NCBI GenBank assembly: GCA_031412255.1
Contig: JANOCQ010000319.1
Coordinates: forward strand, 2,778-66,777
Reading direction: 5' to 3'
Length of the DNA stretch: 64,000 nucleotides
DNA from: Paracoccaceae bacterium
GTDB taxonomy: Bacteria > Pseudomonadota > Alphaproteobacteria > Rhodobacterales > Rhodobacteraceae
A program made the position numbers and the translations under genes. The notes beneath the pieces were generated by a model. That model was not told the DNA's origin and did no database searches. It was given only the letters and a program-made list of their open reading frames with translations. Positions 37,924-42,018 of this stretch are shown here, piece by piece. Each line of letters opens with the position of its first letter. The stretch's first letter is position 1.

Positions 37924-37963
37924 ATGAACCGAAAATGAACGGCAGGTTCTCACCACATTAAAC
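37924..37963 (+). promoter_or_regulatory. 40-bp promoter motif copy 1: ATGAAC-N5-ATGAAC-N4-GGTTCTC-N-CC-N3-TTAAAC
   Basis: Same spacing and 31/40 identity (counted by eye) to the minus-strand copy at 39375-39414. The 11-bp direct-repeat period is typical of OmpR/PhoB boxes. Confidence 0.75.
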
Positions 37964-38043
37964 AAGGATTTGGCACAGTGATTCCAAGATGAGTCGCAAT
38001 CCGCCGGCAAGAGCGAACGACCAGTGTATCTGTGGGGGAAGTC

Positions 38044-38235
38044 ATGCTGCGTTCGACGACCGAGGAAAATCGCCTGTACCTGACTGCCGACCTGCGGGCC
38101 TTTGATGGCCAGCCGCTTCAGAAACGCCAGAAATCCTCGGGCAGCATGTTCCCCGCGGATCTGAAGCGGTTCCCGCCGGTCGAGGACGTCGTCGCCGTCC
38201 TTGACCGGATTGCTTCTCGGGCTTTTGCCGCCTGA
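38044..38235 (+). CDS. Small hypothetical protein (63 aa)
   Basis: SD gggggaag, conserved promoter upstream, strong terminator downstream. Confidence 0.6.
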   Translation: MLRSTTEENRLYLTADLRAFDGQPLQKRQKSSGSMFPADLKRFPPVEDVVAVLDRIASRAFAA

Positions 38236-38261
38236 GGTTCTCCGTTCTCCGTTGCGAAGGG

Positions 38262-38295
38262 AAAGGCCACCCGGTTTCGGGTGGCCTTTTCTTTT
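38262..38295 (+). terminator. Intrinsic terminator after the small ORF
   Basis: aaaggccacccg-gttt-cgggtggccttt followed by tctttt. Confidence 0.85.
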
Positions 38296-38331
38296 GGCGT
38301 GAAACTTCCTGCCATCCGCGTGCGGTCGTGC

Positions 38332-38366
38332 ACAAAGCAAAACGGCCGGCGCAATGCCGGCCGTTT
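38332..38366 (-). terminator. Intrinsic terminator after the (NGGG)n protein gene
   Basis: Minus strand aaacggccggc-attgc-gccggccgttt followed by tgctttgtg. Confidence 0.75.
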
Positions 38367-38383
38367 CAGAATCTTAGCTCGGA

Positions 38384-39280
38384 TCAGAGGCCGAGAAGCT
38401 TCTTCACTGCTGCTTCAACCTCGGGGGTGACCTCTTTGTTCGCTGCGGCATCCAGAAGCGAGGTTTCCAGTTCGGGCTGGTCTTCGACCTTCTGGGTCAG
38501 GTCGGCAACATCGCCCTCAAGCGTTTCGTAGGCGACGGCACCATCGTATTCTGCCTGGAGCGCGGCCTCCGCCTGCTCTGCATCGTCCAGCGTGCCAAGT
38601 GCCGCGTCGAGGTCTGTCTGCAGCTGATTGACCAGCGCAATGTCAGTCGGATCGGCCGCCGCCAGATCGGCTTCCAGCCCGTCCACGATATCCGAAGCGG
38701 TCGCAGTCTCTTCCGCAGCCAAGTCGAGATCGGTCTTCACCAGTTCAGAGCTGCGCGCCGGCGGATCAAGCAGATCCAGTGCGGCCTGCTTCGTTGCGAG
38801 TTCCTCGACCAGAAGCTCGCCGGCGACGACCGCATCGCGATAGGCAGCGATCTTGCCGACGCGGGAATTCGGCGAGGCGTTCTTCAGGGCATTCTCGTTG
38901 GCATGCGCGGCGTTCAGAGCGCCCAGTTCCGACGGATGGACGCCCAGCTCAGCAGCCAAGTCCTTCTTCTTCGGCTTCGCCTTCGCCTTTACCGTGGTCT
39001 TGGCTTTCTCTTTCGTTTTCGACTTGACGCTGTCGCCGCCGGACTTCTTGTCCGATTTCTCGGCCTTGCCGTTGCCGCCGCCGGACTTGTCAGAGTTTCC
39101 GCCGCCATTTCCGCCGCCATTTCCGCCGCCGTTCCCGCCGCCGTTGCCACCGCCGTTGTCGTTGCCCGACTTGGCATAGGCCACGTCCGGCATCGACACG
39201 GCTGCGACGATGGCGACCGAGCCCAGAAGGGCAACCGAAAGCGAGCAGGCTTTCAGCATTTGCAGGGACATCTTCTTCAT
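38384..39280 (-). CDS. Exported protein with (NGGG)5, Lys-rich segment, GALNAAHA/SPNSRVG core and acidic helical C-terminus
   Basis: Signal peptide ending VAYA, SD gagg, own promoter and terminator. Confidence 0.8.
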   Translation of the reverse strand: MKKMSLQMLKACSLSVALLGSVAIVAAVSMPDVAYAKSGNDNGGGNGGGNGGGNGGGNGGGNSDKSGGGNGKAEKSDKKSGGDSVKSKTKEKAKTTVKAKAKPKKKDLAAELGVHPSELGALNAAHANENALKNASPNSRVGKIAAYRDAVVAGELLVEELATKQAALDLLDPPARSSELVKTDLDLAAEETATASDIVDGLEADLAAADPTDIALVNQLQTDLDAALGTLDDAEQAEAALQAEYDGAVAYETLEGDVADLTQKVEDQPELETSLLDAAANKEVTPEVEAAVKKLLGL

Positions 39281-39303
39281 CTCGTACCTCTGGTAATGGG
39301 AGC

Positions 39304-39349
39304 GACCGGCGACTTGGTTTCCGCATGGAAAGGAACCGAGTCGCCGGTC
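39304..39349 (-). other. Long hairpin in the predicted 5' leader of the (NGGG)n gene
   Basis: Perfect 11-bp outer stem gaccggcgact/agtcgccggtc plus inner pairing. Confidence 0.6.
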
Positions 39350-39374
39350 CATGCAAGCATTAGACACCACCCGC

Positions 39375-39414
39375 GTTTAACTCGGCGAGAACCGGTCGTT
39401 CATCTTGAGTTCAT
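39375..39414 (-). promoter_or_regulatory. 40-bp promoter motif copy 2
   Basis: Minus strand ATGAACtcaagATGAACgaccGGTTCTCgCCgagTTAAAC, in the divergent gap before the PepSY-RR-HK operon. Confidence 0.75.
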
Positions 39415-39437
39415 ATCAAATCTGCTAGATCGGCTTC

Positions 39438-39950
39438 ATGAAAATGGCTCGCACCATAGTCCTTGCGTCGATGCTCGCTTTGTCGGGGCCCAGTCTTGCC
39501 GCCACGGTGCGCGAGCTGGACGCTGCGGAACTGCGCCAGGCGGCACGGTCTGGGGATCTGATCAGCCTCAAGCGGGTGATCGAATCTGTTGCGAAATCCA
39601 CTGGTGGAGAGCCGATCGAGGCTCGCGCCTTCGCGGTCGAGGATGTGTTCTACAGAATTGTTCTGAAGAAGACGGATGGATCGGTCATCAGCATCATCTT
39701 CAACGCCCGCACCGGCGAGCAGGTTGGCAAGAATTCCGCGATCGGCAGGAATCTGGCCGCCGCTGCCGAGGGTGGCAAGGGCAAAGACAAGGCCTCGAAG
39801 AGCAAATCCGACCGGGCCAAAGGTGCCGGCTCTGCTGGAGGCGGCTCGGGCAACAATGGCGGCGGAAATGGCGGCGGGAACGGTGGCGGCGGGGGCAGTG
39901 GCAACGGCGGCAACGGCGGCAACGGCGGCAACGGTGGCGGAAAGAACTGA
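39438..39950 (+). CDS. Exported PepSY-like protein with Gly/Asn-rich tail
   Basis: Signal peptide (GPSLA), LRQAARSGDLISL..VI, IEAR, YRIVL...DGSV..IIFNARTG, tail GGGNGGGN. Confidence 0.75.
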   Translation: MKMARTIVLASMLALSGPSLAATVRELDAAELRQAARSGDLISLKRVIESVAKSTGGEPIEARAFAVEDVFYRIVLKKTDGSVISIIFNARTGEQVGKNSAIGRNLAAAAEGGKGKDKASKSKSDRAKGAGSAGGGSGNNGGGNGGGNGGGGGSGNGGNGGNGGNGGGKN

Positions 39951-39994
39951 TCACCGCCATAATTGTTGCCAGATTCGCCTGTAATCCGTGACCC

Positions 39995-40654
39995 ATGAGA
40001 ATTCTTCTTGCTGAAGACGAAGTGGTCCTCTGTGACCAGATCAAGCGCCTCCTCTCGGCCGAGGGGCGTATCGTCGATGTTGCCCATGACGGGCAGGAAG
40101 CCGGCTTTCTGGGTTCTACCGAACCTTATGACATGATCATCCTCGACATCGGATTGCCGATCCGCGACGGGATCTCGATCTTGAAGGAATGGCGTGCGAC
40201 CGGGGTGAAGACGCCGGTGCTTATCCTGACTGCCCGGGACGGCTGGTCCGATCGCGTCGACGGGCTGGATGCCGGCGCCGACGATTATCTGACGAAGCCC
40301 TTCCACCTCCCCGAACTGGCTGCACGGGTGCGCGCGGCACTGCGCCGCAGCTCTGGACGAACCAATCCGCTGTTCGAGCGCGGCGGCGTGGTGTTCGACA
40401 CCCGACACGGGCGTGCCACAGTGGATGGGGTGCCGGTGGATCTCACCTCGCAGGAGGTCGCAGTCCTGACCTATCTCATCCACAATGCCGGGCGCCTGAT
40501 TTCCCGGACCGAATTGTCGGAACATATCTATGAGTATGACGGCGACCGCGATTCCAACACCATCGCCGTGTTCATCAATCGGCTGCGAAAGAAGCTTGGG
40601 CCGGACCTGATCCAGACCATGCGTGGCCGCGGATACATGATCGACGCCCCCTGA
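39995..40654 (+). CDS. OmpR-family response regulator (QseB/PmrA/BqsR-like)
   Basis: LLAEDE, LDIGLP..DG, DDYLTKPF and winged helix SNTIAVFINRLRKKLG. Confidence 0.95.
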   Translation: MRILLAEDEVVLCDQIKRLLSAEGRIVDVAHDGQEAGFLGSTEPYDMIILDIGLPIRDGISILKEWRATGVKTPVLILTARDGWSDRVDGLDAGADDYLTKPFHLPELAARVRAALRRSSGRTNPLFERGGVVFDTRHGRATVDGVPVDLTSQEVAVLTYLIHNAGRLISRTELSEHIYEYDGDRDSNTIAVFINRLRKKLGPDLIQTMRGRGYMIDAP

Positions 40655-42018
40655 TGCTGTCCCTGCGCAAACGGGCCTGGATCAGCGGTGGCATTGCGGC
40701 GCTGGTCTCGCTCAGCGTGGGAACGCTGCTGCTGTATTCCTTCCTGAACCAGCGCGTGCTGCAGCGTTTCGACACGGCGCTGGTGGACCGGCACACGCAG
40801 ATCGTGGTCGCCCTGAGTTCGGTGTCCGATGACCCGGCCGTTCTGGGCGAACTGCTGTTTGATCCGGCCTATCAGACACCCTTTTCCGGTCGGTATTGGC
40901 AGGTCACCGGGCCGGACGGGCAGATTTTCGCGTCAGCGTCGCTTCTGGATGCGACATTGCCCGGCCCGCAAAATGCGACCTCTGCGCTGGACATTCTGGA
41001 TGCAGCAAACCCGGAGGTCGAGGAGGTCCGTCTGGCGCAGCAGGTGATCACGCTGGAAGACGGGGGAGCATGGACGGTTGCCGTCGCCGAGAGCCTGACC
41101 GAACTGAACGCCGAACGGCTTGAGACCCGGCGCAGCCTGATCGTTGCCTTCGCCCTCGTGGCGGTGATCGGTCTGGCAAGTGTCCTGGTACAGACTGCAT
41201 CAATCGTGCGCCCGCTGGACCGCCTGCGCCGTGACGTGGCGCAGCGCTGGGACAAGGACGAAGAGCTGAGCGAAGCCGATTATCCCGAGGAAGTCGCTCC
41301 ACTGGTCAGCGACATCAACGCACTTTTGCAGCGCAACCGCGACATCATCAGCCGCTCGCGCAGACAGGCGGCGGATCTTGCTCATGCACTGAAGACACCA
41401 AGTGCGATCCTCCGGAACGAGCTGACACAGTTGGCGGAGGAATCGCATGCCATGGACAAGGCGCTGGACGCACTGGACCGGGTGGACGCCCAGCTTGGCC
41501 GGTCGCTGGCGCGGCTGCGGGCGTCGAGCTCGGGCGAGACGACGCAGGCCAGGACCGATCTCAGCCATTCCATCGACCGCTTCGCCAGGTTGTTCGGGAT
41601 GATGGCGAACCGGGAGGGGAAGCGTCTTCAGGTGGTCTGCGATCCAGGGTTGACGATCCGGATGGATGCGCAGGACATCGAGGAAGTGCTTGGCAACCTC
41701 ATGGACAACGCCCTGAAATGGTGCCGGACGGTACTGTCTCTCACCGCACGGGCGCAGTTAGGCGGGATCGAGATCCTGATCGAGGACGACGGGCCTGGCA
41801 TCCCGGCTTCGGACCGGGCCGAGGCGATGCGGTCCGGAGCGCGGCTTGACACTTCGAAGCCTGGGACGGGGCTGGGGCTGGCCATCGCGAGCGACCTGCT
41901 GCAGGCCTATGGGGCCTCGCTGGCGCTGGAGGAGAGCCCGTCGCTGGGGGGGCTGGCGGTGCGGATCACTCTGCCGCCGCAGCGGGTTCGACCGGCAAAG
42001 GACGCAACCAAGGCCTAG
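40654..42018 (+). CDS. Sensor histidine kinase (QseC/PhoQ-like)
   Basis: Two TMs, DLAHALKTP H-box, GNLMDNALKW, EDDGPGI, GTGLGLAI. TGATG overlap with the RR. Confidence 0.95.
   Translation: MLSLRKRAWISGGIAALVSLSVGTLLLYSFLNQRVLQRFDTALVDRHTQIVVALSSVSDDPAVLGELLFDPAYQTPFSGRYWQVTGPDGQIFASASLLDATLPGPQNATSALDILDAANPEVEEVRLAQQVITLEDGGAWTVAVAESLTELNAERLETRRSLIVAFALVAVIGLASVLVQTASIVRPLDRLRRDVAQRWDKDEELSEADYPEEVAPLVSDINALLQRNRDIISRSRRQAADLAHALKTPSAILRNELTQLAEESHAMDKALDALDRVDAQLGRSLARLRASSSGETTQARTDLSHSIDRFARLFGMMANREGKRLQVVCDPGLTIRMDAQDIEEVLGNLMDNALKWCRTVLSLTARAQLGGIEILIEDDGPGIPASDRAEAMRSGARLDTSKPGTGLGLAIASDLLQAYGASLALEESPSLGGLAVRITLPPQRVRPAKDATKA

Follow-up and report, generated by a model that had tools for sequence, protein, structure and literature searches.

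The window analysed here is a stretch of 64,000 nt from a Paracoccaceae bacterium (GCA_031412255.1, contig JANOCQ010000319.1, positions 2,778 to 66,777 of the forward strand). It carries two copies of a 40-bp motif, one upstream of a gene for a small cytoplasmic protein, and the other in the divergent gap between a gene for a secreted protein and an operon encoding a PepSY-like protein, a response regulator and a sensor histidine kinase. We consider it likely that this locus is the version, in the genus Tabrizicola, of an envelope-sensing module of the FeuNPQ/DbfQRS type, and that the phosphorylated regulator binds boxes within the motif and drives the adjoining genes. The system is thus of a known type, found here in a freshwater genus of the Rhodobacteraceae, and is not a new kind of system or mechanism.

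A sequence-only reading of this DNA had placed the motif ATGAAC-N5-ATGAAC-N4-GGTTCTC-N-CC-N3-TTAAAC at 37924-37963 on the forward strand (ATGAACCGAAAATGAACGGCAGGTTCTCACCACATTAAAC) and at 39375-39414 on the reverse strand (ATGAACTCAAGATGAACGACCGGTTCTCGCCGAGTTAAAC, given as the reverse complement). Both placements proved correct, as did the identical spacing of the two copies and their match at 31 of 40 positions. The first copy ends 80 nt before the ATG (38044) of a 63-amino-acid (aa) open reading frame (ORF), and the second ends 94 nt before the ATG (39280, reverse strand) of a 298-aa ORF, again in agreement with that reading. The only two exact matches to ATGAAC-N5-ATGAAC in the 3.92-Mb genome are those at these sites, where base composition would predict 0.09. 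A genome-wide scan, which had been suggested as a check, returned the 40-bp motif only at the two window sites, and no third copy of the 31-position consensus was found anywhere in the genome even when 9 mismatches were allowed. With a 40-bp weight matrix built from orthologous sites, the two window sites scored 59-64 bits and the rest of the genome remained below 12 bits. The two exact occurrences against 0.09 expected, the lack of any further consensus match and the matrix scores together exclude a chance origin of the motif.

We then asked how the motif is distributed within the genus. Source names carried by homologues place the window in the genus Tabrizicola (Rhodobacteraceae). The five-gene cassette is syntenic in 16 other genomes of this genus, and the motif stands before the small gene in 14 loci, the window included, and before the secreted-protein gene in 16. 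The consensus over these loci reads nTGAAC-nnAAn-ATGAAy-nnnn-GGTTC-nCnnCnn-GTTAAAC, with the information concentrated in four hexamers, which are half-sites of 11-bp period, and with variable spacers between them. Of the 36 other genomes of the genus, 19 encode an orthologue of the kinase. Strong orthologues of the secreted protein were detected in 16 genomes and orthologues of the small protein in 13 other genomes of the genus, and every one of these lies within the 19 kinase-positive genomes (Fisher p 1.3e-7 and 1.3e-5, respectively). A lipoprotein-like gene located on another contig was found in 11 genomes, all of them kinase-positive (Fisher p 1.5e-4). Because the motif is conserved genus-wide, co-occurs strictly with the kinase and contains a FeuP-type box, the direct repeats very probably form the operator of the local OmpR/PhoB-family regulator, and both convergent genes would belong to its regulon, as had been proposed from the sequence.

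Closer inspection of the motif pointed to an architecture other than that first described. The 11-bp spacing also separates GTTCTC (motif positions 23-28) from GTTAAA (positions 34-39), and in other Rhodobacteraceae genera the last element of the motif reads GTTCAA, GTTCAC or GTTCAT. Because of this spacing and these variants, we read the 40-mer as a pair of 16-bp boxes that face in opposite directions across a 7-bp gap. Box A (ATGAAC-N5-ATGAA) is strong and points away from the gene, and box B (TTCnn-N6-TTAAA) is weaker and points toward it. In composite site 1 (37924-37963, forward strand), box A (ATGAACCGAAAATGAA, 37924-37939) lies in reverse orientation relative to the small gene and is followed, after the 7-nt gap, by box B (TTCTCACCACATTAAA, 37947-37962) in forward orientation. 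In composite site 2 (39375-39414, reverse strand), box A occupies 39414-39399 and box B 39391-39376; read on the forward strand, box A becomes TTCATCTTGAGTTCAT (39399-39414), a forward box for the PepSY-like operon. A reading of TTAAAC as a -10 element with GGTTCTC as spacer is one that we reject, since the two elements make up the second, inverted and weaker box with the same 11-bp period. Given that conserved hexamers sit 11 nt after box B, TTAAAC would instead be a half-site at about -35.

The box, GTTCAT-N5-GTTCAT, consists of two hexamers with an 11-bp period and is equivalent to TTCA-N7-TTCA, which is the reverse complement of TGAA-N7-TGAA, that is, of ATGAAC-N5-ATGAAC. In Sinorhizobium meliloti, TTCA-N7-TTCA was found upstream of FeuP-dependent genes and was proposed as the FeuP site; the 16-nt boxes are listed in Table S17 of that study, for example TTCATTTGCCATTCAG for feuN (PMC3616915). 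Boxes on the same strand as the gene end 23-25 nt before the mapped transcription starts, and two genes carry an opposite-strand box at -47 (PMC3616915). The composite layout seen here reproduces the position of these reversed boxes, as 7 + 16 + 24 = 47. Sites in the Rhizobiales with ATGAACGCCAGATGAA likewise show a gap of 7 nt, a forward box (e.g. TTCAAGAGCACTTCAG), a further 11 nt and then a -10-like hexamer. A scan of fetched loci located the box [ACG]TGAAC-N5-[AC]TGAAC just upstream of related regulator-kinase operons in Mesorhizobium, Vibrio, Burkholderiaceae and others, and in Rhizobiaceae, too, the box precedes such operons. The feuN 16-mer itself is letter-identical upstream of feuN in ~45 Rhizobiaceae genomes.

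The same 16-mer provided the means of identifying FeuP, as an exact match to the S. meliloti sequence was located upstream of feuN-feuP-feuQ in these Rhizobiaceae genomes. A regulator with 54-57.5% identity to that of the window is encoded 370-450 nt downstream of the 16-mer, and in one Rhizobiaceae locus feuN (91 aa), feuP and feuQ follow each other in order. When Rhizobium FeuP was compared with the genome, the window regulator was its best match, with 56% identity over the full length (next best 42%), and in the reverse search FeuP was the best match of the window regulator (56%; next best 40%), making the two proteins reciprocal best hits. FeuQ also found the window kinase as its best match in the genome, with 31% identity over 455 residues (next best 24%), in a search run in the direction from FeuQ to the genome. 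We therefore annotate the gene at 39995-40654 (forward strand) as an OmpR/PhoB-family response regulator of the PmrA/BqsR subfamily orthologous to FeuP, and that at 40654-42018 (forward strand) as a sensor histidine kinase orthologous to FeuQ, with a PhoQ-like catalytic core. The stop codon of the regulator gene and the start codon of the kinase gene overlap in TGATG (40652-40656), which implies translational coupling, as has likewise been reported for feuPQ of Agrobacterium. The closest solved structures to the regulator are Thermotoga DrrD (1kgs), followed by BasR/PmrA and the receiver domain of CarR (BqsR). Against the PmrA equivalog model NF007928, the regulator scored 209 bits, below the cut-off of 330. 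The locus had been called an undescribed mini-regulon, and this description does not hold, since the regulator is the reciprocal best hit of FeuP, the kinase is the best match of FeuQ in the genome, and the box is the candidate FeuP site of S. meliloti.

Transcription starts were placed with the S. meliloti distance rule, at 23-25 nt after the box. For the small gene, this gives a predicted start at 37985-37987, with CACAGT (37974-37979, forward strand) as the predicted -10; TGCAnnnT is conserved here, 11 nt after box B. For the secreted-protein gene, the predicted -10 is TCTAAT (39359-39364, reverse strand) with a predicted start at 39351-39353, and across 16 loci the conserved sequence at 11 nt past box B is TCTA[AG]T, with TGGTG in front of it. 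The operon has a predicted -10, CTAGAT, within GCTAGATC (39425-39430, forward strand) and a predicted start at 39437-39439. We take GCTAGATC to be a -10 of the alphaproteobacterial type, going by the Caulobacter consensus GCTANAWC. Across the 16 loci that cover this region, the window included, GCTAnA is conserved 10 nt beyond box A of site 2, and in all of these the ATG of the operon lies 7-8 nt past the -10 and 23-24 nt past the box, a distance that leaves no space for a ribosome-binding site between the -10 and the ATG. In the rhizobial feuN promoter, the distance from the box to a -10-like hexamer is also 10-11 nt when judged by eye. A consensus promoter scan detected no sigma-70 promoter and no recognisable -35 hexamers at the sites.

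Starts are thus predicted about 24 nt after TTAAA, and not just downstream of TTAAAC. As the predicted start of the operon coincides with its ATG at 39438, its mRNA is predicted to be leaderless, and since the forward-strand box of site 2 occupies the feuN-type position before the operon, autoregulation is implied; the PepSY-like/regulator/kinase operon is most likely both autoregulated and leaderless, to judge from this geometry. Site 2 is predicted to be a symmetric, back-to-back bidirectional promoter. A leftward promoter reading from box A of site 1 was also considered; there is no conserved -10 on that side, and site 1 was therefore treated as unidirectional.

These elements suggest the following scheme. 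The phosphorylated regulator would bind the 16-bp boxes GTTCAT-N5-GTTCAT, and the gene-proximal box would overlap the -35 region with a sigma-70-type -10 placed 10-11 bp away, in a class II mode of activation as used by PhoB/PhoP-type regulators. Site 1 would drive the gene for the 63-aa cytoplasmic protein. On one side, site 2 would drive the gene for a secreted, Gly/Asn-rich coiled-coil protein and, on the other, the leaderless mRNA of the PepSY-like/regulator/kinase operon, so that the system would regulate itself. By analogy with DbfQ and, functionally, with FeuN, it is probable that the PepSY-like protein restrains the kinase by binding to its periplasmic domain, which would provide negative feedback.

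We weighed this scheme against other explanations of the motif. The sequence-only reading had offered, as an alternative, a promoter of an extracytoplasmic function (ECF) sigma factor, with the second GAAC as -35 and the GTT of GTTAAAC as -10, in which case the two-component system would be a mere neighbour. ECF promoters combine a -35 (G)GAAC with a -10 (C)GT(T/C) across a non-conserved spacer of 16-17 bp, and a gene for the sigma factor or its anti-sigma factor usually lies adjacent. GAAC-N16-(G/A)TT can indeed be read in most copies of the motif and resembles established promoters of the type GGAAC-N16/17-(C)GTT, those of RpoE2 among them. However, window site 1 has ATT and not GTT, and most of the conserved positions are left unexplained, namely the distal ATGAAC 11 bp upstream, the invariant GGTTC inside the supposed spacer and the hexamers 11 bp downstream. 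Moreover, single boxes that lack GAAC-N16-GTT precede the operon and the lipoprotein-like gene at the same spacing, the box travels with the regulator-kinase pair across orders with no sigma or anti-sigma gene in the conserved cassette, and the box-bearing genes of S. meliloti are FeuP-dependent (PMC3616915). The ECF alternative is therefore not supported, and we regard it as very improbable. It is more improbable still, to the point of being negligible, that the two 40-mers descend from a local duplication or from a small repeat element and serve no regulatory function. There are only two copies and they lie 1.4 kb apart, as such an origin would have it, but their flanks are dissimilar, conservation centres on the four half-sites of 11-bp period, with spacers that vary, and the sites persist at orthologous positions where the proteins have diverged to ~45-50% identity.

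Another OmpR-family regulator could bind the boxes, the adjacency of the local pair being either coincidental or a case of cross-regulation. The genome encodes at least nine further OmpR-type regulators, and sites of the form hexamer-N5-hexamer are generic for the family. Nevertheless, the box, its targets and this particular regulator-kinase pair strictly co-occur in the genus, the box lies directly upstream of orthologous operons in distant lineages, and the next-best regulator of the genome is only 42% identical to FeuP; we judge the involvement of a paralogue to be improbable. A slightly less remote alternative, though still an unlikely one, is that the local regulator binds as proposed but represses, so that an inactive kinase would leave the genes switched on. 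The boxes overlap -35 regions or promoter elements, BqsR can act either way depending on the position of its box (PMC13522522), and a box upstream of mscL lies only 5 nt from a -10-like element. Yet the sites have no recognisable -35 hexamers, as is typical of activator-dependent promoters, and in S. meliloti promoters of this geometry are activated in a FeuP-dependent manner (PMC3616915).

Several points also weigh against reading the locus as an activating module of the FeuNPQ/DbfQRS type. Sequence architecture, conservation, orthology and phyletic co-occurrence are direct observations; binding, activation, the transcription starts, the signal and what the PepSY-like protein does are inferred. 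Whether the regulator activates or represses is judged by the example of S. meliloti, where the FeuP box is itself a candidate site that came from motif discovery and expression data and not from footprinting. With only 31% identity between the kinase and FeuQ, the signal that is sensed may differ. The leaderless mRNA is deduced purely from geometry, and the predicted -10 of the small gene (CACAGT) is weak. Finally, the PepSY-like protein of the window has no Pfam match of its own, and its homology to FeuN is unproven.

The first gene of the operon (39438-39950, forward strand), which occupies the position of feuN and dbfQ, encodes a secreted PepSY-like protein of 170 aa with a Lys-rich segment and a (GGN)n tail at its C-terminus. 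The PepSY label given to it earlier stands in part: the window protein has no Pfam match at E<=10, but PF03413 matches 9 of 12 orthologues, with a best E of 2.5e-4, which is weak. An AF2 model of the protein shows a helix-plus-sheet core with pLDDT >90, and the best meaningful Foldseek match to this model is the PepSY protein YpmB (2gu3; probability 0.97, rmsd 2.4 A over 63 columns, E 0.27). These profile and model comparisons lend moderate support to a small secreted PepSY-domain protein beside the regulator and kinase. The Lys-rich segment and the (GGN)n tail are present in all of the PepSY-like orthologues, and also in the versions from Ruegeria, Yoonia and other Rhodobacteraceae, which reach 261 aa. 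A profile-profile comparison (hhalign) of the PepSY-like protein with FeuN gave a probability of 45%, mostly from the signal peptide and one helix, and FeuN had no PepSY match in a profile search. The first genes of related operons in Vibrio and in other lineages encode clear PepSY proteins. That of Vibrio has 135 aa with the domain at residues 75-118, in agreement with DbfQ, which has 135 aa with PepSY at 74-122 (PMC12714742). DbfQ binds the sensor domain of DbfS and favours its phosphatase activity, and the promoter of its operon served as a reporter of pathway activity (PMC12714742). For the first gene of the window operon, we regard this mechanism as the best model.

FeuNPQ of S. meliloti and Agrobacterium is a two-component system for osmotic and envelope stress (PMC3616915; bioRxiv 10.64898/2026.01.20.700542). 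The window locus shares with it the order of genes, from a small secreted protein to the regulator and then the kinase, the coupling of the latter two genes, the box with its spacing of ~10-11 bp to the -10-like hexamer, the composite of a reversed and a forward box (as in the Rhizobiales), and a regulon made up mostly of small orphan envelope proteins. It differs in that the first gene here encodes a PepSY-like protein with a (GGN)n tail and not a recognisable FeuN, in the operon mRNA, which is predicted to be leaderless whereas feuN of S. meliloti has a 28-nt leader, and in the sensor domain of the kinase, which is ~30% identical. The three targets proposed here were not recognised among the annotated FeuP-dependent genes, a comparison of annotations in which no homology search against those genes was made. 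The FeuP/FeuQ system is further characterised by control of cyclic-glucan export (ndvA) and by a response to osmolarity.

DbfQRS of Vibrio cholerae also begins with a small secreted PepSY protein, followed by an OmpR-type regulator and a membrane kinase (PMC12714742), and Vibrio loci related to the window kinase have the 135-aa PepSY gene and a TTCA-N7-TTCA-like box upstream. On the other hand, the regulators are ~50% and the kinases ~32% identical, the Vibrio protein has no Gly/Asn tail, and the output in Vibrio is the biofilm lifecycle. The analogy to BqsRS drawn in the sequence-only reading is reasonable, as BqsR recognises the box TTAAG-N6-TTAAG (PMC13522522) and modules of a PepSY protein, a response regulator and a histidine kinase (PepSY-TCS) form a recognised, widespread class (PMC12714742). 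BqsP/Q-BqsR-BqsS (CarRS) of Pseudomonas aeruginosa is a module of this composition; its box agrees with the one here in the 11-bp period and resembles it in the TTAA core (PMC13522522), and among solved structures the CarR receiver domain ranks with the best matches to the window regulator. Unlike the BqsR box with TTAAG, the box core here is TTCA/TTAA-T. The locus further resembles the class II promoters of enterobacterial PmrA/BasR and PhoP in having hexamer-N5-hexamer repeats over a -35 region that lacks a -35 consensus, but the sequence of the box differs and the NCBIfam PmrA score of the regulator is far below the cut-off. Inspected by eye, the stretch of the kinase that lies in the periplasm (about residues 31-160) contains no RE dipeptide and hence cannot hold the RExxE motif that is needed for Fe(II) sensing in BqsS.

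The locus offers a compact, testable regulon for an envelope sensor of the FeuPQ/DbfQRS type. It suggests that rhizobial FeuNPQ and the PepSY-TCS modules of Vibrio and Pseudomonas are versions of one system, and it refines the grammar of the promoter to an inverted double box with fixed -10 spacing, bidirectional use and a leaderless autoregulated operon. It also provides a regulatory context for three orphan families, namely the 63-aa cytoplasmic protein, the secreted coiled-coil protein and the Gly/Asn-rich lipoprotein-like protein. One may speculate further that Rhodobacteraceae carry a distinct core regulon of FeuPQ type composed of orphan proteins, and that FeuNPQ, DbfQRS and BqsRS are a single family, although we hold this combined proposal to be doubtful at present. 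Were it true, these three systems would share a TT(C/A)A-N7-TT(C/A)A box and the inverted double-box promoter; no paper linking them by box and promoter was found in the literature searched. The secreted Gly/Asn-rich proteins, that is, the PepSY tail, the coiled-coil protein and the small lipoprotein, would then form an envelope output. PmrD and MgrB are small regulated proteins that feed back on enterobacterial systems of the PmrA/PhoP type, and the cytoplasmic protein of 47-90 aa with its RFPP(V/I)ED..LDRIA-like motif could, under the same proposal, be a feedback connector of this style acting on the regulator or the kinase.

The 63-aa protein of the window is encoded at 38044-38235 (forward strand) and carries the motifs RLxLTADLRA and FPPVEDVVAxLDRIASRAF. 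Its ORF is truly coding, as substitutions fall mainly at third codon positions. Composite sites also precede small ORFs in other genera of the Rhodobacteraceae, which suggests a core role in the system for the small cytoplasmic protein. In Ruegeria and Yoonia, the small ORFs behind such boxes encode an RFPP(I/V)E-like motif, and they resemble diverged versions of the 63-aa protein. We observed these extra composite double boxes near the operon, before ORFs of 47-90 aa, in Ruegeria, Yoonia, Aestuariibius and other Rhodobacteraceae.

The convergent gene (38384-39280, reverse strand) encodes a secreted protein of 298 aa with a signal peptide and a disordered N-terminal half that is (NGGG)n- and Lys-rich. 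Its C-terminal domain is a helical coiled coil in which the motif LGALNAAHA...NASPNSRVG is invariant. The AF2 model of this protein is all helical, with pLDDT >97 for residues 140-280, and Foldseek returned generic coiled coils only, none at E<=0.001. The small, secreted and lipoprotein-like proteins had no Pfam or NCBIfam match, and all named homologues of the two window targets are annotated as 'hypothetical'. Low-complexity Gly/Asn-rich and Lys-rich stretches are common to the tail of the PepSY-like protein and the N-terminus of the secreted protein, and the lipoprotein-like ORF has a Gly/Asn-rich segment.

Each of the convergent genes had been reported to end in its own terminator, and RNA folding bore this out, with a hairpin followed by a U-run in both cases. 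The terminator of the small gene (38255-38299, forward strand; -35.8 kcal/mol, z -4.96) is followed by UUUUCUUUU, and that of the secreted-protein gene (38328-38368, reverse strand; -26.8 kcal/mol, z -3.98) by UUUUGCUUUG. A simple terminator scan missed both, and folding was used for their confirmation.

A conserved GAGTCGC / CCGAGTCGC element lies just after both predicted starts, at 37991-37997 and at 39336-39344 (both on the forward strand), and is kept in nearly all orthologous loci. The small mRNA contains it in sense orientation; for the secreted-protein gene it is antisense, so that the mRNA of that gene carries GCGACUCGG. It may act as a second operator, influence mRNA stability or allow the two mRNAs to pair. 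The 9-mer GCGACTCGG is not rare, with 25 copies in the genome, so that only its fixed position is notable. GCGACUCGG is contained in a conserved 5' hairpin of the secreted-protein mRNA (39304-39349, reverse strand; -31.5 kcal/mol, z -3.8), which shows apparent compensatory changes between species (GACCGGC/GCCGGTC versus GACCTGC/GCAGGTC). The 5' untranslated region of the small gene showed no significant fold (z 0.09).

The system had also been described as self-contained, which is contradicted by a box-bearing lipoprotein-like gene on another contig and possibly by mscL. A 17-bp box matrix, run over the whole genome, gave seven matches of at least 14 bits beyond the two composite sites, and four of these were inspected, two strong and two weaker. 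One of the strong ones belongs to a 73-aa Gly/Asn-rich lipoprotein-like ORF (MKILTAVATVLVLTTSLSSAAFACGCE...; contig C70:5711-5998, outside the window), with its box at C70:5982, 70 nt upstream. Here, one forward box is followed after a 10-nt spacer by TAGCCT, a -10-like hexamer, and the gene also has a Shine-Dalgarno sequence and a terminator. The box stands at an unchanged distance in ~9-10 of 12 orthologues, and the gene is likely to be a third member of the regulon. The matches at C304:15946 and C286:2307 had lower scores and no matching geometry, and were set aside. The gene for the large mechanosensitive channel, mscL, has the box GTGAACCGAAAATTAAC (contig C91:4826-4842, outside the window) 86-103 nt upstream. 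This box is conserved only in the closest clade, with the -10-like TGCAATAG 5 bp away and not 10-11, and mscL is a weak candidate target, albeit a suggestive one, given that FeuPQ is osmosensory in rhizobia. In one complete Tabrizicola genome (L076, at about 5661 on the reverse strand), a third composite site was seen downstream of the kinase gene, before a 136-aa ORF with a TadE-like hydrophobic N-terminus.

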